11,107 nucleotides of DNA from positions 1-11,107 of the forward strand of contig JBEKSC010000046.1 of assembly GCA_049517415.1 (NCBI GenBank), given 5' to 3'. Made by a program: the position numbers and the translations under genes. The DNA comes from Candidatus Bathyarchaeia archaeon (lineage in GTDB: Archaea > Thermoproteota > Bathyarchaeia > 40CM-2-53-6). The notes under the pieces were generated by a model. It worked only from the letters and a program-made list of their open reading frames with translations, did no database searches and was not told the DNA's origin. Positions 1,280 through 9,782 of the stretch are shown here, one piece after another; position 1 is the stretch's first letter; each line of letters starts with the position of its first letter.

Positions 1280-1312
1280 AAAAAGGAGCCTAGTCTCTTG
1301 GATACTAAGGCT
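1280..1312 (-). terminator. Candidate hairpin + U-tract terminator after the cobalamin-binding subunit gene
   Basis: Minus-strand RNA reads AGCCU-U-AGU-AUCCAAGAG-ACU-AGGCU-CC-UUUUU, starting in the stop codon: an 8-bp stem with one bulge, then 5 U. Confidence 0.35.
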
Positions 1313-1750
1313 ACTTCCAACGTTCCTTCTTAACGCGGCCCACTATGTGGTCGACGATTGCTTTCAGAGTTGTGCCTGGGCCGAAATTTCCCGTTATTCC
1401 CAACTTCTCAAGTTTTGGTTTGTCTTCTTCGGGAATAATGCCGCCGCCTACAAGCAGTATGTCGCTTGCGTGTTTCTCTTTCAACGCCTTCGCGACTTTC
1501 GGGAACGCCGTCATGTGTGCCCCGTTGAGCAGACTCATTGCGACAACATCAACATCCTCATCAATAGCCATCTGAGCGACTTGCTCAGGGCTGGCCAAGA
1601 GCCCTGCATAGATTACTTCCATCCCAGCATCTCGGAGTGCCCTGCACAGAACAAGGGCGCCACGGTCGTGCCCGTTTGGCCGTAGGTTTACGCGAGCCCG
1701 GGCTTCGCCACAAGCACCCTAATCTTTTTCTGCTCGGTCTTCCTATCCAC
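1311..1750 (-). CDS. Cobalamin (B12)-binding small subunit of acyl-CoA mutase (IcmB/MCM C-terminal type), split by a 17-nt intron: join(complement 1693..1750, 1311..1675), 140 aa
   Basis: Exon 1 reads VDRKTEQKKIRVLVAKPGL and exon 2 reads (D)GHDRGALVLCRALRDAGMEVIYAGL... Removing 1676-1692 gives CTC GAC GGG CAC GAC CGT GGC = LDGHDRG, the DxHxxG cobalt-ligand motif. Downstream SLLNGAH and VGGGIIP motifs are intact. The ORF track only finds the truncated 1311..1622 piece. Confidence 0.9.
1676..1692 (-). other. Putative 17-nt bulge-helix-bulge (BHB) mRNA intron, CGUAAACCUACGGCCAA
   Basis: Fold: exon stem GCCCG/CGGGC (5 bp), central helix GGCU/GGCC (4 bp), bulges CG^C and AA^A (3 nt each), intron stem GUA/UAC with AACC loop. 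Cuts after the 2nd base of each bulge match the boundaries that restore the Asp codon. Unspliced it gives an in-frame TAA and a frameshift. Confidence 0.88.
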
Positions 1751-1773
1751 CGTGCGTGTTGTTGAGATCTTTC

Positions 1774-1780
1774 CACCTCC
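1774..1780 (-). promoter_or_regulatory. Shine-Dalgarno-like site GGAGGTG for the B12-binding subunit gene
   Basis: Minus strand GGAGGTG lies between the large-subunit stop (1786-1788) and the small-subunit ORF. Confidence 0.55.
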
Positions 1781-1785
1781 GGAGT

Positions 1786-3558
1786 TCAGAGTATCGAGGG
1801 TTCCTTCCAGTCCCCGAACACTTTTCTCCCAACGTCAACGATCTCTCCAAGTGTCGCATAGGACTTGACCGCTTTAAGCATCGGGTAAATACTGTTTGAA
1901 TTAGGATCCTCGAAAGAAGAGCGAAGTTGTTCTAAAGAGTTTTTCACCGCGGTACCATTCCGAGTCTTTTTGAGTTCACCTAACCTCTTTACCTGGCTCT
2001 GGCGCACTTTTTCGTCGATTCTTAAAGTCTCGATGGGGGAAGCTTCATTCATTTCGTAGGCATTGACTCCCACAATAACTCTCTTGCCTTCTTCCATCTG
2101 ACGTTGGTACTTGTATGAGGTGTCTGCAATTTCTCTTTGGATGAAACCTTTCTTGATGGCGGCCAGAATACCGCCTATGTCCTCGATTTTAGCGAGATAC
2201 TCGAATGTTCGCTGTTCCAGTTCATCCGTTAACCACTCCACATAATAGGACCCGCCGAGAGGATCGATTACATTGGCAACACCTGTTTCTTCGGCTACCA
2301 GTTGCTGCGTTCTCAGGGCGATTAGGGCAGCCTGCTCTGTTGGCAGGGCCCACGCTTCATCGTAGGCGTTTGTGTGCAGGGATTGTGTTCCACCCAGTAC
2401 TGCGGCTAAGCCCTCTACCGCAGTTCTTACAATGTTGTTGAGTGGTTGTTGCCACGTCAACGATACACCTGATGTCTGGGTGTGAAATCGCATCAGCATT
2501 GACCTTGGGTCTTTCGCATGGTATTTTTCCTTGAGAACCTTAGACCAGATTCGTCGCGCAGCCCGGAATTTTGCAATTTCCTCGAAGAAATCCATCCCGC
2601 AGTTAAAGAAGAACGACAACCTGGGGGCGAAATCATCCACCTTCAGCCCAGCCTTCAGGCCTAAGTCTACATACGCAAAACCATCGGCGAGCGTAAAAGC
2701 CAGCTCTTGCAAGGCGCTTGAACCAGCTTCGCGAATATGGTATCCGCTTACGCTGACATAGTTCCACGTCGGCATGTGTTTTGTGGAGTAAAGCATCATG
2801 TCACGGATAATTCGGAGGTGAGCTTCAGGGGGATACACCCACTCTTTTTGGGCAGCATACTCCTTGAGAATATCCGTCTGCACGGTGCCACGCAGTTTTC
2901 TTGAATTAAATCCGCGCTCATCCGCGAGTGCAACATACATACAAGTTAGGACAGAAGCCGGCGCGTTGATTGTCATTGAGGTACTGACCTGATCAAGCGG
3001 AATGCCATCAAAGATGGCCTCCATGTCTTTGAGTGACGATACGGAAACGCCGCATTTGCCAACTTCGCCTTCCGCCCTCGGATGGTCGGCGTCAATTCCA
3101 TACAAAGTGGGCATATCGAAAGCGATGCTCAGCCCAGTTTCGCCCTCTTTAAGGAGGTACTTTAGGCGGGCGTTGGTTTCCTCAGGGCTCCCGTAACCAG
3201 AGAACATTCGCATAGTCCACGGGCGACCTCTGTACATGGTAGGGTAGATTCCACGGGTGTATGGAAATTCGCCGGGTAATCCAATATCACGGTGATAATC
3301 ATGGTGCGACACGTCAGTAGGATCGTAGATGCGCTTGAGGGGGATCCCTGAGGGATTCTCGAAGGCTTCCCTCCGCTCAGGTGCATTCGCCAACCATTTC
3401 ATGAGCGTGCCTTGGTTCCATTTGCGCTGATTTCGCGCAATGGAATGGAGCTCTTTGCGGTTGTACAGCGTGGCCTGTTTCTTTTTCGCGGCTGTAATTT
3501 GCTCAACTTTCCTGGCCCAGTAATTTATTCTTCGTTTTGGGGGCATTTGTTTCCACAC
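1786..3558 (-). CDS. icmA: Acyl-CoA mutase large (substrate-binding) subunit, isobutyryl-CoA mutase-type
   Basis: MCM-family motifs PGEFPYTRG, GLSIAFD, STSMTIN, SGYHIREAG, FHTQTSG, GGTQSLHTN, DPLGGSYYVE; no fused B12 domain. Specificity positions are Phe (WTMRMF) and Gln (KEYAAQ) rather than Tyr/Arg. The true start is uncertain and may lie downstream of 3558. Confidence 0.85.
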   Translation of the reverse strand: MWKQMPPKRRINYWARKVEQITAAKKKQATLYNRKELHSIARNQRKWNQGTLMKWLANAPERREAFENPSGIPLKRIYDPTDVSHHDYHRDIGLPGEFPYTRGIYPTMYRGRPWTMRMFSGYGSPEETNARLKYLLKEGETGLSIAFDMPTLYGIDADHPRAEGEVGKCGVSVSSLKDMEAIFDGIPLDQVSTSMTINAPASVLTCMYVALADERGFNSRKLRGTVQTDILKEYAAQKEWVYPPEAHLRIIRDMMLYSTKHMPTWNYVSVSGYHIREAGSSALQELAFTLADGFAYVDLGLKAGLKVDDFAPRLSFFFNCGMDFFEEIAKFRAARRIWSKVLKEKYHAKDPRSMLMRFHTQTSGVSLTWQQPLNNIVRTAVEGLAAVLGGTQSLHTNAYDEAWALPTEQAALIALRTQQLVAEETGVANVIDPLGGSYYVEWLTDELEQRTFEYLAKIEDIGGILAAIKKGFIQREIADTSYKYQRQMEEGKRVIVGVNAYEMNEASPIETLRIDEKVRQSQVKRLGELKKTRNGTAVKNSLEQLRSSFEDPNSNSIYPMLKAVKSYATLGEIVDVGRKVFGDWKEPSIL

Positions 3559-3639
3559 GAACTTAGAAAGTTCAGAGGAGGGGCGTTAATGTTCTTTTGG
3601 GTAATCTGAGGCCGTTGTCCTTCAAGGTCATATACGTCC

Positions 3640-5256
3640 TTGGTTCCTAGGATTGTTCGTCCAACTTTGAAGGAAAAGAAGAGTTCTTCTTCGCCGGCCA
3701 CGACAGGGAAGCAACACTTCGGCGCGTCAGATTCCAGTCCTCACTACCCCAAAGGCATTCTAGGTGAACCTGGCAAATTTCCATTTACGCGCGGTATCTA
3801 CCCTGAAATGTACCGTTCGCGGCTCTGGACGATGAGGCAGTATTCAGGGTTTGGTAGCGCAGAAGCCACGAATAGGCGTTTCAGGTTTCTGATAAAACAA
3901 GGACAAACCGGGCTCAGTGTTGCCTTTGACCTTCCGACTCAATTGGGGTTTGATTCAGACAGCCCGAGAGCTGAGGGCGAGGTGGGCCGGGTAGGAGTAC
4001 CCATCAGTTCCGTGGAAGATATGCGATTGCTTTTCCGAGGCATCAAGCTTGGAACGGTCAGCACTTCCATGACCATCAACGCTACTGCGGCCATAATGCT
4101 GGCGATGTATGCTGCGGTAGGGAGTTCGCAAGGGGTTCCGCTTTCACGATTGCGGGGAACGACGCAGAATGATATTCTCAAAGAGTACATAGCTCGAAAT
4201 ACCTACATCTTCCCTCCCGAGCAATCCTTGAGGTTGTCCGTGGATATCATCGAATTTTGTGCAGAACAGATGCCGATGTGGCACCCGATCAGCATAAGCG
4301 GATACCACATAAGGGAAAGTGGCTCAAGCGCAGTCCAGGAACTCGCTTACGCGTTTGCAAACGCAGAAGAGTACGTTCGCGCTTGCATTAAGCGAGGATT
4401 GGAGGTCGACGATTTCGCACCACACTTGTCCTTCTTCTTCGCATGTCATAACGACTTCCTAGAAGAGATAGCGAAGTTCCGTGCAGCACGTCGCATATGG
4501 GCGCATATGATGAAAGAAAAATTCCACGCGAAGAATCCTGAGTCTATGAAGCTACGTTTCCATACTCAAACTAGCGGGGAAACGTTGACTGCACAGCAAC
4601 CGCAAAACAATATTGTGCGCGTGGCCATACAGGCTTTGGCAGCGGTCTTAGGGGGTACACAATCCTTGCACACAAATTCCCTCGACGAAGCGTTATCTTT
4701 GCCTACAGAGGAAGCCGTGAAAATAGCACTCCGAACGCAGCAGATAATTGCCTTCGAGAGTGGCGTGACAAAGGCAATCGACCCATTGGGTGGGAGCTTC
4801 TACGTGGAATCCTTGACGAACAAGATTGAAAACGAAGCGAAAGCCGAGATTCGTAAAGTCGATGAATTAGGCGGTGCTGTGAAAGCAATTCAGAGCGGAT
4901 ACATCCAGAATCAGGTTCGCGATAGCGCCTTCAAGAGGCAAATGGGCATAGAATCGAGCGCTCACAAGATAGTCGGCGTTAACGTATATGTTGACACGAA
5001 ACCGTACCATATTACCCTCCATAAGATCGAGTCAGCCGCGGTACGCCGGCAGATCTCTCGCACTAAGGCTTTCAAGCGAAAACGCAAGAAAACTCAGCTA
5101 CTTCGTAACCTCAGAACGCTTCAGAATGCTCTAGAGCGAGACATCAATGTAATGCCTTTGATAATCAGCGCTGTAAAGTCCGGAGCCACCACCGGCGAAA
5201 TAAGTGATGCCATAAGAGAAGAGTATGGGGAGTTTCATCCCAAGACCATTATCTAG
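3640..5256 (+). CDS. mcmA: Methylmalonyl-CoA mutase large (substrate-binding) subunit
   Basis: Same family motifs, with the MCM specificity residues Tyr (WTMRQY) and Arg (KEYIAR); no fused B12 domain. TTG start is uncertain. Confidence 0.9.
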   Translation: MVPRIVRPTLKEKKSSSSPATTGKQHFGASDSSPHYPKGILGEPGKFPFTRGIYPEMYRSRLWTMRQYSGFGSAEATNRRFRFLIKQGQTGLSVAFDLPTQLGFDSDSPRAEGEVGRVGVPISSVEDMRLLFRGIKLGTVSTSMTINATAAIMLAMYAAVGSSQGVPLSRLRGTTQNDILKEYIARNTYIFPPEQSLRLSVDIIEFCAEQMPMWHPISISGYHIRESGSSAVQELAYAFANAEEYVRACIKRGLEVDDFAPHLSFFFACHNDFLEEIAKFRAARRIWAHMMKEKFHAKNPESMKLRFHTQTSGETLTAQQPQNNIVRVAIQALAAVLGGTQSLHTNSLDEALSLPTEEAVKIALRTQQIIAFESGVTKAIDPLGGSFYVESLTNKIENEAKAEIRKVDELGGAVKAIQSGYIQNQVRDSAFKRQMGIESSAHKIVGVNVYVDTKPYHITLHKIESAAVRRQISRTKAFKRKRKKTQLLRNLRTLQNALERDINVMPLIISAVKSGATTGEISDAIREEYGEFHPKTII

Positions 5257-5280
5257 GAAGATAACGAGGCGCCCACGCTC

Positions 5281-6255
5281 GTGCCTAAATCGCATGCAAA
5301 ATCAACGCCCAGCGCATTAATTCGAAAAGCTGTGCATGGGGATCGACGTGCCATATCACAGTTAATGTCGATGGCTGAGAATGACCCTCAAGCGAGGATT
5401 ACGATTCTTTCTAAGTTGTACTGGCTTACTGGGAAGGCGCAAATCGTTGGCATAACTGGTCCGCCAGGATGCGGAAAGAGCACGCTGATTGCACAACTTG
5501 CGAAGCGTTACAGAGATGCTGGCCGCAGTGTGGGAATTGTCGCTGTCGACCCGTCAAGTCACATAACTGGTGGAGCCTTGCTTGGTGATCGAATTAGGAT
5601 GGGAGAACTCGCCTCGGATCCCCGAGTTTTTATCAGGAGCATGGCTACTCGCGGGCATTTTGGGGGGGTTGCAAGAGCAACGGAAGACGCGGTTCGAATC
5701 CTAGACGCTTCGGCGATGGACTATGTGATTGTTGAAACAGCGGGAGCGGGTCAGTCAGATGTTTATGTTAAGCAACTTGCGCATACCACTGTCGTCGTAA
5801 CTGCCCCCGGGATGGGGGACGAAATTCAAGCTTTGAAAGCGGGCATTATGGAAATCGCAGATATCTTCGTCGTCAACAAGGCCGATAGGGAGGATGCGGA
5901 CCGCGCGGCGCAAGAAATTCACCAAATGATTATGATGTCCGAACCTTTCCGAGGCTGGCGGCCACGCGTCCTGAAGACGGTTGCGACATCCGGGGATGGA
6001 GTCGCCGGACTCGTGGAGACGATAAACCAACATGCAAAGTACCTTGGGGATTCCGGCGGGTTGCGGAAAACTAGAGTTGCACGCCTGCCTTCTGAAGTGC
6101 TTGAAGTAGCCAAACAGTACTTTGAGGAGGTAACGCTGAAAGAAATAGCGACATCCGAAATGTTTCAGAAAATTATGAGGCAGGTAACAGCGAACAAAAT
6201 TGACCCTTACTCCGCGGGCCGCAAATTAGTCAGTAAGCGACTTGCAAGACGCTAG
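5281..6255 (+). CDS. meaB: Methylmalonyl-CoA mutase-associated GTPase MeaB (ArgK/MMAA family)
   Basis: GITGPPGCGKS Walker A, AVDPSS, GGALLGDRIRM, FIRSMATRG, VETAGAGQ, NKAD; 24 nt downstream of the mutase gene. Confidence 0.95.
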   Translation: MPKSHAKSTPSALIRKAVHGDRRAISQLMSMAENDPQARITILSKLYWLTGKAQIVGITGPPGCGKSTLIAQLAKRYRDAGRSVGIVAVDPSSHITGGALLGDRIRMGELASDPRVFIRSMATRGHFGGVARATEDAVRILDASAMDYVIVETAGAGQSDVYVKQLAHTTVVVTAPGMGDEIQALKAGIMEIADIFVVNKADREDADRAAQEIHQMIMMSEPFRGWRPRVLKTVATSGDGVAGLVETINQHAKYLGDSGGLRKTRVARLPSEVLEVAKQYFEEVTLKEIATSEMFQKIMRQVTANKIDPYSAGRKLVSKRLARR

Positions 6256-6362
6256 TTTGAGCTTACCCGAGAAGGGAAGAAACTGCAAGATCAGCCCCTC
6301 TGGACCCGGAAAATCGTCCATCCATTGGAGGATGCCTCTATGCGTGCGCGCGGCTAAACCAA

Positions 6363-6397
6363 AGTGTATAACACCTTAACATTGGGGGTATAACACT
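6363..6397. repeat. Direct repeat GTATAACAC x2 (6366-6374, 6388-6396) with flanking inverted AGTGT/ACACT; candidate operator
   Basis: Exact 9-bp repeat at 22-bp spacing in the intergenic region upstream of the PolB2 cassette. The regulatory role is inferred. Confidence 0.45.
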
Positions 6398-6451
6398 CGA
6401 TGAACCGCCTCAAAATGCAGAACGCTTTACATTCACATATCTCTGACAGAC

Positions 6452-7252
6452 ATGCGCTCAATCTGGTCTCCCAGATTATCTGCTTGTATTCTTCACGGCA
6501 ATTCTATGGTTCCATTGAATTGTAAAGTAACCGTCGAAAACTTTGTGAAAGTTAACGACCTTCTAGGCAAGCGTGAACAGTTACAACCTGATTTGACTTC
6601 TGGCATGGAAGTCATAGACGGGATCTTGAGGCTCAACTTCGGCCAGTTTGTTACGTTTCAGGGGAACCATGCACATGCTCTCTCTATGTTACTCTGCGTC
6701 AGGGCGACTCTGCCACAACCGTTAAGCCCAGATTGTGATTCGGTATTCGTTGACGGAGGTAACCTTTTCGACCCATACTATATCTCAGACCGCTCAGTTG
6801 AGCATGGCCTTGACACGGAGAAAGTGTTAGAACGTCTTCACGTCAGTAGGGCTTTCACCCACCACCAACTCGCGTGCCTCATAACCGATAAACTTCCACC
6901 CGCGATAAAGAAATTCAGGGCGAAATTCGTCGTCGTCTCTGGCATTACGCAGCTCTACCGCGACCCAGACATACAGGGCGAGGATAAAGAAGATGCACTT
7001 CGCATCTTCGCGAAAACTGTAAGAAAACTCGCAAGCCTCGCCAGACAACAAAAATGCTTGATAATTGCAACGAACTTAGAATCCAGAAATACACTAATGG
7101 ATCACATCCTTGCACAGGCCGCTCACGTTGCTGCAACAATCGAGCAAAAAGACACCTTGATTCGATTCTCATTACGGAAACATCCATGGCTTCCCCCAAG
7201 CACCGCTGTCGCATCCTCGCCTGGGATCGTGACTTTGGAGAGTTACCTGTGA
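6452..7252 (+). CDS. Inactivated RadA/Rad51-like ATPase-fold protein associated with PolB2
   Basis: LTSGMEVIDGIL, VFVDGGNLFDPY, LERLHVSRAFTHHQL and VVVSGITQLY resemble the RecA/RadA core, but the Walker A GxxxxGKT is absent (FQGNHAHALS). The real start is probably ATG 6506 or GTG 6545. Confidence 0.8.
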   Translation: MRSIWSPRLSACILHGNSMVPLNCKVTVENFVKVNDLLGKREQLQPDLTSGMEVIDGILRLNFGQFVTFQGNHAHALSMLLCVRATLPQPLSPDCDSVFVDGGNLFDPYYISDRSVEHGLDTEKVLERLHVSRAFTHHQLACLITDKLPPAIKKFRAKFVVVSGITQLYRDPDIQGEDKEDALRIFAKTVRKLASLARQQKCLIIATNLESRNTLMDHILAQAAHVAATIEQKDTLIRFSLRKHPWLPPSTAVASSPGIVTLESYL

Positions 7253-7506
7253 TGGGGCGAACAATACCGTCATGGAGAATGGTCGTAGAGGCTGAGGTTG
7301 AGAAACTGAAAAGATTTCAGGAATTTCTCAGAGAAGAAGACAAAATCATTTTCGAAGATATGTTGAACCAATGTAAGCTGCTCGCGTCAGCGGCGAGTGC
7401 AATGGCCTCACCAATAAAACAGGTGCCCTTGATCATTTCTATGCTGTTCGCGCACCACAAGAAAATTATCGAATTAGAGAAGAGGATCGAAGAGCGGGGC
7501 CTTTGA
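7252..7506 (+). CDS. Small alpha-helical PolB2-associated protein (arCOG07300-like), 84 aa
   Basis: MGRTIPSWRM... begins at the ATG overlapping the upstream TGA (TGATG); its own stop overlaps the polB2 TTG (TTGA). This position matches the conserved PolB2 operon. Confidence 0.8.
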   Translation: MGRTIPSWRMVVEAEVEKLKRFQEFLREEDKIIFEDMLNQCKLLASAASAMASPIKQVPLIISMLFAHHKKIIELEKRIEERGL

Positions 7507-9782
7507 AGCATCAAGGCTGGATCCTTGACCTCTACCCTAATGCTGGCCAAATGGTGGTCTGGCTCAAGCAGCCCGACGGATCATGTGTTAGGCTAGTTGA
7601 CAGGTGGAAACCACGAATCCACATTGGCGGGGAGCTTGACGACCTTCTAAACCTTCAACCATTCATACCATCAGGCACATTCGTCGAGAAATTTGAGAGG
7701 GCAGGCGATAAGTCTGAGAGTAAAGTTCTCGAAGTTGAAGTAAACGACGAACCAGAAGCCCAAGCTCTGGGACGAAAAATCCTCCGGCATGGTGGATACT
7801 CGACGTTTAGGCTCTACGACGTGGATGTCCCATCAACTCAAATGTACCTCTATCACAACGACTTGTTCCCTCTAGCGTTCGTCGAGGCCGACGCCTCTCA
7901 TGGCCGCGTTAAGTGGGCTGTCAATGATTCACGTGAAACAATCGACTACGAACTACCAGCGCTTCGAAACCTACGGCTAGAAATTAGCACCAAGAAGACT
8001 CGTAGAGTCTCACGATTTGAAGACGAATTAGGCTCCATTAAAATCCAAACCAACGGGGACACCATGATTTTCGATTCAGGCAGTGAACTCGACAAACTTG
8101 ACAAACTCGTCACAGCATTCCGCGAAATTGACCCAGACGTAGTCTTGACGGAAGGCGGAGACTCCTTCATCTTTCCCTACTTGGCTAGACGTGCTCACCA
8201 CCACCATATACTCCACAGAATGGTTCTCGGAAGGGAGGAGTCGCCGCTTCGTGTTTATGAGGTGCAAGGCCACAGTTACTTCTCGTACGGGAAGATGCTC
8301 TTCAAGCAAACCGCCGCAAGACTGCTGGGCCGGTTGCATGTGGACGAGGCGAATGGTTTCATCAGCAGCGACTGCGGCCTCGAAGGCCTTTTCGAAGTAG
8401 CCCGAACCTGCATAATCCCATTGCAGAGGGCCTCGCGAACGACGATTGGCACTAGTATGACGTCCCTTCAACTCTACCACGCCGTCAAAGCCAACGTGCT
8501 AATCCCCTGGAACAAGAACGAGCCCGAGGAGTGGAAGAACGGAAACGAGCTCATACTAGCGGACCGCGGCGGCTTCATTTACGAACCAAAATTCGGACTA
8601 CACGACTCCGTTGGGGAACTCGACTTCTCCTCCCTATACCCAACCATAATGCGCAACATGAACCTGAGCGGGGAAACCGTACGTTGCAACTGCTGTCCAG
8701 ACTCCGTTCATAGAGTACCAGAGCTGGGGTGGAATGTTTGTGAACGATGGAACGGCATAGTGCCCAGATCGCTCGACATATTACTCCGGAAACGTGCGCT
8801 TTACAAGAAGTACAAGAAAGAAGCTACGGACCCACCTACGAGGTTGCGGTATGATCAACGCCAAGCCGCGCTCAAATGGATCCTAGTCTGCTCATAGCCG
8901 CCTCGAAAGCGGCGGGCAATTGGATACCTAGGCTTCAAGAACGCGCGGTTTGGGAGAATCGACGCGCACATCGCAACCTGCGCTTACTCCCGGCAGATTC
9001 TACGAAAAGCGGTTGCAATCGCGGAATCCAAGCGCTTCCAACTCATACACGGCATCGTGGATTCGATGTGGCTCCGGGAACCTAACGCAACCCCAAGCGA
9101 GTATGAGGAACTATGCCGCACGATAGAGGAGCAGCTACGCTTCCCGATAGCGTTCGAAGGATGCTACAAGTGGATTGTGTTCCTGAACTCGCGAATAAAT
9201 CCGCGAATTCCTGTCCTCAACCGTTACTACGGAATCTTTCAAGACGGGAAACTCAAAGTCAGAGGAATCGACCTCCGCCGCCACGACACTGCCGGCATAG
9301 TCAGGCGATGCCAAACGGACGTGCTGACCACACTCTCGAAGGCTGATAACTCAGAGGAATTCATGACGCTCATACCTGAAGCGCTGACGGTAGTAAGGTC
9401 ATACGTTCACCTAATCAGAAGCGGAGCTATCCCAGTCGAGGAACTCGTTATCGAGAAACGCCTCAGCAAGAATCCCAACGAATACAGAAATCTGGTTCCA
9501 CAAGCCATCGCGGCTAAACACCTTGCTGCGGAAGGCATGGAGGTACACGCCGGGCAAACAATCAACTACATCTTAACCTACGACAAGTCTAGGATAAACC
9601 AGAACAGAGCTCTCCCAACTGAGCTGATGGATGAAGGATCCGACTTCGACTCGGAGAGGTATGTCGATCTACTACTTTCCTCAGTTGTCAACCTTCTACT
9701 ACCCTTTGGATATGATCTAGCAGCGTTGAAAGACCCTGACAGGCAAATCAGCAAAGCACCAGGTTTAGGTTCGCCTAGGTAA
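7503..9782 (+). CDS. polB2: Family B DNA polymerase, PolB2 group, split by a 24-nt intron: join(7503..8895, 8920..9782), 751 aa
   Basis: ORFs 7503..8897 and 9057..9782 are in the same frame with a single TAG between them. Motif A is ELDFSSLYP; motif B is restored to KWILVCSFGYLG after removing 8896-8919; motif C is the PolB2-type HGIVDS. NRYYG and KVRGIDLRRHD are present; exonuclease acidic residues are degenerate. Confidence 0.9.
8896..8919 (+). other. Putative 24-nt BHB mRNA intron, AGCCGCCUCGAAAGCGGCGGGCAA
   Basis: Central helix GCUC/GGGC (4 bp), bulges AU^A and AA^U, intron stem GCCGC/GCGGC (5 bp) with 7-nt loop; exon-side stem imperfect (CCUAG 8882-8886 / CUAGG 8928-8932 further out). 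Cuts after the 2nd bulge base join T8895 to TT8920-8921 = Phe. Unspliced it creates TAG at 8895-8897. Confidence 0.85.

Follow-up and report, generated by a model that had tools for sequence, protein, structure and literature searches.

Two interrupted genes and the structure of their inserts

The stretch of DNA analysed here (the window) is the whole 11,107-base contig JBEKSC010000046.1 (C46 in our numbering) of a 2.65-Mb metagenome-assembled genome (MAG) of a Bathyarchaeia archaeon, which comprises 59 contigs and is rated 100% complete. The metagenome DNA runs that contain this stretch come from peat, wetland, and soil. Two unrelated genes in the window, one for the mutase small subunit of the propionate/methylmalonyl-CoA pathway and one for a family-B DNA polymerase (PolB), are each split by a short insert that resembles an archaeal bulge-helix-bulge (BHB) intron, the type excised by the splicing endonuclease EndA and ligated by RtcB. 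The parts of the two genes are as follows.

1750..1693, minus strand: mutase small-subunit exon 1, with a GTG start at 1750, 19 codons and the first base of an Asp codon
1692..1676, minus strand: mutase insert of 17 nucleotides (nt), phase 1, with TAA at insert bases 3-5
1675..1311, minus strand: mutase small-subunit exon 2, stop codon included, matching Pfam B12-binding (E 9e-22) and positions 14-130 of the 132 of TIGR00640
7503..8895, plus strand: PolB exon 1, matching Pfam DNA_pol_B and exo1 and NCBIfam NF004416 positions 83-403
8896..8919, plus strand: PolB insert of 24 nt, phase 1, with TAG formed by the last exon base and insert bases 1-2
8920..9782, plus strand: PolB exon 2, stop codon included, matching NF004416 positions 406-621

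Exon 1 of the mutase gene matches the N-termini of intronless orthologues by alignment (…KIRVLVAKPGL-D). The frame then runs …K-P-G-L, is interrupted by the 17 extra bases, which separate the first base from the rest of the Asp codon (g|ac) in the cobalamin-binding motif L-D-G-H-D-R-G, and resumes as …G-H-D-R-G; deletion of exactly these bases rebuilds both the Asp codon and the motif. The two open reading frames (ORFs) of PolB are adjoining halves of a single NCBIfam profile, NF004416 (83-403 and 406-621). Here the frame runs …L-K-W-I-L-V-C-S, then 24 extra bases, then G-Y-L-G-F-K-N-A. The insert splits off base 1 of a Phe codon (t|tt) within a variant motif B, LKWILVCS-F-GYLGF, and its deletion rebuilds that codon. 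The predicted junction peptides are …AKPGLDGHDR… for the mutase and …WILVCSFGYLGFK… for PolB.

The two inserts have several features in common, including a central helix of 4 base pairs (bp) with one G-U pair (GGCU/GGCC in the mutase, GCUC/GGGC in PolB), a 3' end of GG(C/G)CAA, and GCTC within the last six bases of the upstream exon. In both, a four-base exon stretch ending 2 nt before the 5' junction pairs with a four-base intron stretch ending 2 nt before the 3' junction, so that each junction follows base 2 of a 3-nt bulge. EndA follows the rule of cutting after the second base of each bulge. The elements of the two motifs, with the register of the mutase motif read from the sequence, are listed below.

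1670..1703, minus strand: full mutase BHB motif
1699-1703 with 1670-1674, minus strand: mutase outer helix, 5 bp, exon with exon
1695-1698 with 1678-1681, minus strand: mutase central helix, 4 bp
1692-1694 and 1675-1677, minus strand: mutase 5' and 3' bulges, CGC and AAA
1682-1691, minus strand: short inner hairpin of the mutase insert, with an inner helix of 2-3 bp
8890..8920, plus strand: PolB relaxed BHB (HBh' by the definition in the excerpted text of PMC6379350)
8890-8893 with 8914-8917, plus strand: PolB central helix, 4 bp
8894-8896, plus strand: PolB 5' bulge, AUA
8897-8901 with 8909-8913, plus strand: PolB inner helix, 5 bp
after 8919, plus strand: PolB 3' cut

In its strict form a BHB is defined as two 3-nt bulges flanking a 4-bp helix, while the hBH and HBh' forms have one flanking helix missing (PMC6379350, excerpted text). 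Measured by this definition, the mutase motif is near the strict form and the PolB motif is a relaxed HBh'. The position of the cbf5 intron, as given in the excerpted text of PMC2738675, agrees with a cut after the second bulge base. Cuts at these places restore L-D-G-H-D-R-G in the mutase and VCS-F-GYLG in PolB, and the canonical BHB cuts are the only junctions that restore both motifs. A search blind to structure, in which 3,640 combinations of start and length were scored by protein alignment to an intronless relative, returned 8896-8919 as the best deletion for PolB, coinciding with the perfect central helix. The minimum free energy folds obtained with RNAfold were BHB-like for both inserts, that of the mutase being shifted by one pair. 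The initial annotation of this DNA had reported a 17-nt and a 24-nt insert in two unrelated genes and had proposed them as candidate BHB introns. Both inserts are in the sequence, as is every detail that it listed (phase, location in a key motif, early stop, 4-bp helix with a G-U pair, GG(C/G)CAA, and GCTC), and their anatomy and comparative behaviour match those of introns of the EndA/RtcB type.

Orthologous loci and alternative accounts of the inserts

Both loci were searched by DNA in 60 related genomes and in the window's own genome. The mutase locus was matched in 24 of the 61 genomes and fetched from 20. An insert was found at the identical site in 16 of these 20 loci, with lengths of 16, 17, 18, 19, and 23 nt that leave residues of 0, 1, and 2 modulo 3; the remaining four (G008, G005, G028, and G024) had none, and in them the sequence …C-T-T-(G/A)|A-(C/T)-G-G… was continuous exactly at the predicted junction. 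PolB was matched in 30 of the 61 genomes and fetched from 25, with an insert at the identical site in 17 loci (16 parsed, of 20-32 nt, and L032 recognized by eye), again with all residues modulo 3. Seven further PolB loci (in G019, G016, G006, G010, G033, G035, and G037) were continuous at the predicted junction, and in one (L044) the upstream part was not alignable. The central helix had all 4 pairs in 16/16 mutase inserts and in 15/15 parsed PolB inserts. Across the 16 mutase orthologues 92.2% of the cells of the structure paired, compared with 17-35% when the partner strand was slid, and the corresponding values for PolB were 94.8% and 30-58%. Compensatory change was seen in PolB, in which three pairs were altered on both sides and covariation reached 0.237, compared with 0.138 in shuffles, a value attained by 0 of 500.

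In every intron-bearing relative the spliced frame stayed open across the downstream exon, in 15/15 for the mutase (121-127 codons) and all 15 for PolB (270-300 codons). Exon 2 substitutions relative to the window fell mainly on third codon positions (for example 8/4/75 and 29/25/72 at the three positions), and intronless orthologues behaved alike. Exon 2 is under purifying selection in the intron-bearing loci. In the mutase, synonymous sites within the exonic half of the motif were fixed only where the intron was present. The third base of the central-helix Gly codon was G in 16/16 intron-bearing genes and T, T, G, and A in the four intronless ones, and in the 3' outer helix the Gly codon ended in G in 15/16 intron-bearing genes, as against A, C, G, and T in the intronless ones.

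These data bear directly on the possibility that both genes are decaying pseudogenes, and that the inserts are ordinary insertion mutations that fold by chance. Such decay would be compatible with the unexceptional fold energies and with the presence of ordinary broken genes elsewhere in the MAG (a thiolase-like gene on C4, an MBL-fold gene on C28, and a PolB gene on C7 with CAG changed to TAG). It is nevertheless highly improbable, given that the inserts occupy one site in 16 and 17 genomes from several genera, that they vary in length while exon 2 stays intact with its substitutions mostly at third codon positions, and that the BHB register is kept in all. The mutase small subunit, moreover, is single-copy and adjoins the genes of its partners; TIGR00640 has only one match in the whole genome, which is the interrupted gene itself. 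Both large-subunit genes and MeaB, located as follows, need this small subunit.

1786-3558, minus strand: mutase large-subunit gene 1 (Pfam MM_CoA_mutase, E 6e-221)
3640-5256, plus strand: mutase large-subunit gene 2 (Pfam MM_CoA_mutase, E 2e-212)
5281-6255: MeaB (Pfam, E 3e-83)

The other genes recognized in the window with Pfam and NCBIfam are a thiolase C-terminal fragment, a ChsH2-type OB protein, a RadA/Rad51-like protein, a phosphoribosyltransferase, and a LarA N-terminal fragment. The mutase operon and the RadA-like and PolB genes also lie no more than about 7-8 kb apart in relatives (window compared with G018:C2, G016:C3, and G015:C54), and the two introns therefore share a common conserved neighbourhood.

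An artefact of assembly or binning, or excision at the DNA level in some of the cells, could also give the appearance of an interrupted gene, and the estimated contamination of the MAG (6.86%) lends this some plausibility. Contigs from four runs belonging to four studies, however, bridge both sites with 0 differences and with no joined form (X11 records 2 and 6, X12 record 15, X13 record 23, and X18 record 32), so that the inserts are real in DNA. With inserts carried by 16-17 independent genomes, and with the synteny of the mutase and PolB genes kept in the three relatives named above, an artefact is extremely improbable. Three of these runs also contain a co-occurring strain whose mutase insert is longer by one base, a change that would shift the frame were the insert translated. 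At the start of the second large-subunit ORF (5' end), a co-occurring strain in three runs has one base added behind 3695 and lacks one base at 3700.

Splicing enzymes, cbf5 and the extent of the intron set

The initial annotation had noted that EndA and RtcB are absent from the window and had proposed that the type of EndA be identified; the enzymes are encoded elsewhere in the genome, on C10, C2, and C5. Two genes have EndA domains (C10:75178 and C2:42070), and RtcB is found at C5:94022 (573 bits). The alpha-type EndA is nearest to catalytic chains from the heterotetrameric enzymes of Crenarchaeota (3p1z_B, E 7.5e-39; 3ajv_B; 2cv8; 2zyz_B). The alignment is free of gaps through the Lys-carrying loop and G-I-D-H-A-P-F, with the catalytic His aligned along with the loop Lys, which we take to be the functionally required Lys. 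A functional role for this loop has general support in a review (PMC6379350, excerpted text). The second EndA gene is beta-like, and the genome accordingly appears to encode an alpha/beta EndA pair of crenarchaeal type, together with an RtcB, both of which are predicted to act on these RNAs. From its similarity to the crenarchaeal enzyme, this EndA would probably accept the relaxed motif of PolB. Transfer RNA genes were called with aragorn, which returned 28 genes, 23 of them with introns at varied positions. Two of the calls have doubtful introns of about 1.2 kb (e.g., C4:117730-119008). A total of only 28 tRNA genes was obtained despite the 100% completeness rating, and many others are probably hidden by multiple or non-canonical introns.

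The cbf5 gene of the same genome is a positive control. Its catalytic Asp codon is split after base 1 by a 19-nt BHB intron (C24:34228-34246; L076:1690-1708) with a 4-bp central helix of CCCU/GGGG, and crenarchaeal cbf5 introns occupy the same position in that codon (PMC2738675, excerpted text). This intron was present in 30/30 related loci fetched (29 parsed, one by eye), at 19-23 nt and in at least four families of the order, and one pair of its central helix changed on both sides, being C-G in 22 loci and U-A in 5. The cbf5 intron extends into Bathyarchaeia. In three loci (L083, L084, and L092, from G013, G017, and G006) exon 2 of cbf5 is short, at 169, 80, and 137 codons compared with about 254, which may reflect a second interruption or an assembly error. 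The mutase and PolB introns are not members of the cbf5 positional family because they lie in other genes; the feature that marks this family is absent from the window introns and present in the genome's own cbf5.

A further alternative is that the inserts are skipped at translation, by programmed ribosomal bypassing (hopping) or by frameshifting, with the RNA left uncut. Phage T4 gene 60 shows the hallmarks of bypassing, namely a short gap left untranslated, a stop where take-off occurs, and a hairpin, all of which count in its favour. Yet neither site has matching take-off and landing codons, and what has been conserved is the exact BHB register with its 3-nt bulges, rather than a take-off and landing pair. 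The genome also encodes the matching endonuclease and ligase, and cbf5, whose splicing has been shown experimentally in Crenarchaeota (PMC2738675, excerpted text), has the same anatomy. Skipping at translation is, on this evidence, very unlikely.

It is very probable that both inserts are genuine archaeal BHB pre-mRNA introns spliced by EndA and RtcB, with cleavage and ligation being inferred from anatomy, comparison, and gene content. In the mechanism envisaged, the last six bases of the upstream exon (the 4-nt helix strand and two bulge bases) would pair with the last six bases of the intron, a heterotetrameric alpha/beta EndA would cut after the second base of each 3-nt bulge, and RtcB would ligate the exons. 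In the mutase, ligation would rebuild the Asp codon that belongs to the cobalamin-binding motif, and in PolB the Phe codon within motif B. Unspliced RNA would present an immediate stop codon and yield a truncated, inactive product.

Several observations weigh against this interpretation. The 24 runs listed for the stretch include no RNA run. Because the related genomes share descent and are thus not independent, the counts of loci given here are descriptive only. Of the outcomes anticipated for a comparison of orthologues, presence and absence were found in both genes and compensatory changes in PolB but not in the mutase; covariation in the mutase did not exceed that of shuffles (220-270 of 500 reach it), and its pairs were mostly invariant or changed on one side, as with U-G and U-A in 8 and 8 loci or G-C to G-U. 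The inner helix of the mutase insert is only 2-3 bp long. The PolB motif has no contiguous outer helix, and its splicing would therefore rely on an enzyme that accepts relaxed motifs. Fold energies were no better than those of dinucleotide shuffles (z = -0.18 for the mutase and -0.33 for PolB), and stability is thus no evidence. Finally, this PolB has the variant motifs VCSFG and HGIVDS, the latter in place of what is presumably the usual motif, YGDTDS. Because of these variant motifs, and because the genome has three other PolB genes (four of family B in total), the PolB gene is less clearly indispensable.

A fourth family of mRNA BHB introns was found in an MtnA/eIF-2B-like gene, in phase 2 and in a T-H-C-N-(A/T)-G motif (loci L139-L155). 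The MtnA-like gene of the related genome G051 has a 25-nt insert (L112:3784-3808; G051:C1:123784-123808), removal of which restores T-H-C-N-A-G-A-L-A-T. The best deletion found without regard to structure was the same as the BHB cut, and the motif combines a 4-bp central helix with an inner one of 7 bp. At the same site, 9/18 loci had an insert of 22-41 nt, these 9 coming from six families of the order; 7 loci were continuous and 2 were unparsed. The central helix was intact in 9/9 inserts, and the inner helices, of 4-11 bp, were unrelated in sequence. The copy of this gene in the window's own genome is intronless.

The initial annotation had gone further in proposing that this lineage splices many mRNAs, that many of its apparent pseudogenes may be intact, and that BHB folds should be enriched at other gene interruptions. 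A scan of the genome that began from the BHB motif gave 2,100,379 relaxed candidates. Of these, 47,647 joined open frames, compared with 47,454 and 48,535 in frame-shifted controls; addition of coding potential and an intron length of <=60 nt left 992, compared with 1,042 and 1,099, and a count of unique stops gave 478, compared with 476 and 505. Among the three known introns only that of the mutase passed. Hits thus equalled controls, and the ab initio route was abandoned because the motif by itself is too weak a signal for discovery.

Screens by homology were made with ORFs from 400 kb of G033, a genome of the same family in which the region was picked so as to take in the two known loci, and from a 627-kb part of G051, a genome of another family in which the region was unbiased (1.03 Mb in all). 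These ORFs were compared with the whole genome at thresholds of >=100 bits, >=40% identity, and <=1 stop. In the resulting comparisons (124 for G033, and 167 and 71 for G051), some of which were antisense-frame artefacts, the only intron-like interruption in this genome was that of PolB. The unbiased G051 set gave 0/238, and the G033 set gave 1/124, this being PolB, a positive control; the mutase was missed because its exon 1 has only 19 codons. The reverse screen, with 285 comparisons at slightly looser thresholds and 66 others, gave 1/351 intron-like cases, namely the MtnA-like gene in G051, and the unbiased sample for G051 gave 1/236. When 226 adjacent ORF pairs were tested for shared introns none was convincing, and the 27 coincidences of site that arose (13-127 nt, with weak helices, and several with sequence resembling a start site) were judged by eye to be gene boundaries. 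These screens are blind to introns common to both references unless both exons exceed 45 codons, and to genes without homologues.

Splicing of tens to hundreds of mRNAs by EndA and RtcB in this genome might be argued from the three introns that it holds and the fourth family in the order, from tRNA genes that are very intron-rich (23/28 aragorn calls), and from the blind spots of the screens. Set against the single PolB case in the forward comparisons, the single case in the reverse ones, the lack of any convincing shared intron in the ORF pairs, and an ab initio yield equal to that of controls, splicing on this scale is distinctly unlikely. The screens suggest instead that each genome has a handful of mRNA introns rather than many.

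Other interruptions met in this work were single-base frameshifts or point nonsense codons, which speaks against the idea that many apparent pseudogenes are intact. The thiolase-like gene at C4:15268-16417 has three 1-base indels (near 15559, 15650, and 15944), the mark of a pseudogene or else of poor assembly in this stretch. The MBL-fold gene at C28:22014-22765 (minus strand) has TAG at a Trp position near 22525 along with a frameshift. On C30, TGA occurs at 3375 and at 11762 (in a gene at 11411-11885), one of the two with a frameshift. Neither these genes nor the MBL-fold gene has an insertion. In the PolB gene on C7, the codon that reads TAG at 17054-17056 (minus strand; L161:1555-1557) is CAG in 8/9 relatives and TAC in one, and is therefore a point nonsense change or a consensus error. 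Apart from this in-frame TAG, the C7 gene encodes an apparently canonical family-B polymerase, with YGDTDS present. Recoding of TAG was also rejected, as this codon ends 352 of 1,082 long ORFs and no suppressor tRNA was found by aragorn.

The repertoire is small, with three introns in this genome (cbf5, mutase, and PolB) and a fourth family elsewhere in the order. Most likely the introns of cbf5, the mutase small subunit, PolB, and the MtnA/eIF-2B-like gene make up a small set that is dynamic in evolution within this order of Bathyarchaeia, with precise loss or gain in different genera.

Relation to known introns and biological meaning

The cbf5 pre-mRNA intron of Crenarchaeota is said to have been described by Watanabe in 2002. 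Like the window introns, it is a tiny BHB intron in coding sequence, is linked to a hetero-oligomeric EndA, and shows patchy gain and loss (PMC2738675, excerpted text). In cbf5 and the mutase alike, an Asp codon is split after its first base. The differences lie in the hosts, which are now a mutase small subunit, a family-B polymerase, and an MtnA/eIF-2B-like gene, and in the lineage, which consists of mesophilic Bathyarchaeia of peat and soil rather than hyperthermophilic Crenarchaeota; in addition, splicing was demonstrated by experiment for cbf5, whereas here it is deduced from sequence. Non-canonical tRNA introns (hBH and HBh'), which are associated with (alpha-beta)2 or epsilon2 EndA (PMC6379350, excerpted text), follow the same motif grammar and involve the same class of enzyme, and the window's genome is likewise rich in tRNA introns. 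In the present case the substrate is mRNA, and the exonic half of the motif must therefore also encode protein.

Haloarchaeal EndA is of the homodimeric type. A BHB intron in the 5' untranslated region (UTR) of HVO_1309 in Haloferax volcanii is likewise an mRNA substrate of EndA other than cbf5 (PMC7714728, excerpted text). Unlike the window introns, it lies in an untranslated leader and interrupts no reading frame. In eukaryotes, HAC1/XBP1 mRNA is spliced by IRE1 and RtcB, with a small intron removed by a protein endonuclease acting on paired stem-loops, followed by RtcB-type ligation that switches on an active protein. The small mRNA intron, the protein endonuclease, the RtcB-type ligation, and an active protein as the outcome are points of likeness, but the IRE1 endonuclease is unrelated to EndA, and splicing there is regulated by stress. 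Unconventional splicing by IRE1 and RtcB is mentioned in the excerpted text of PMC13149111.

A 2009 paper (Yokobori, PMC2738675) mentions predictions of introns in further protein genes, none of which had been confirmed. A 2020 study (PMC7714728) gives cbf5 as the only further BHB intron previously reported, to which the Haloferax 5'-UTR intron was added, and a 2025 structural paper (PMC12397907) still refers the mRNA case to the cbf5 papers only. The view expressed in the initial annotation, that cbf5 is essentially the sole known mRNA case, agrees with the searchable literature, which cites only cbf5 for a BHB intron in coding sequence. For more than 20 years of searchable papers, then, cbf5 alone has been cited for splicing by protein enzymes within an archaeal coding sequence, the Haloferax 5'-UTR intron being the sole addition. 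Full-text searches of papers outside subscription journals returned no account of BHB introns in Bathyarchaeia or in genes for a mutase, PolB, or MtnA. The introns presented here would add three further host genes in a widespread, uncultured, mesophilic lineage, with strong comparative support.

Annotation pipelines will call such genes pseudogenes or split them, and in this genome the only mutase small subunit of the propionate/methylmalonyl-CoA pathway is lost in this way. The introns offer short, concrete RNA substrates for study of the specificity of alpha/beta EndA, and their patchy presence, with precise absence in close relatives, makes them a natural system for intron gain and loss. 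Each of the four introns interrupts a motif for catalysis or cofactor binding, a regularity that raises the question of whether it reflects an insertion bias, a survival bias arising from constrained exon sequence, or regulation. One bold and rather unlikely idea is that Bathyarchaeia have a population of BHB micro-introns that turns over, inserting into catalytic or cofactor codons of unrelated enzymes or surviving nowhere else, and that these introns act as a post-transcriptional licence, with active enzyme made only from messages that EndA and RtcB have processed. The four sites are the Asp of Cbf5, the Asp of DxHxxG in the mutase, motif B in PolB, and H-C-N in the MtnA-like gene. If this were true, central metabolism and DNA synthesis would be tied to the state of the RNA-processing machinery, in an archaeal analogue of control of the IRE1/XBP1 type.

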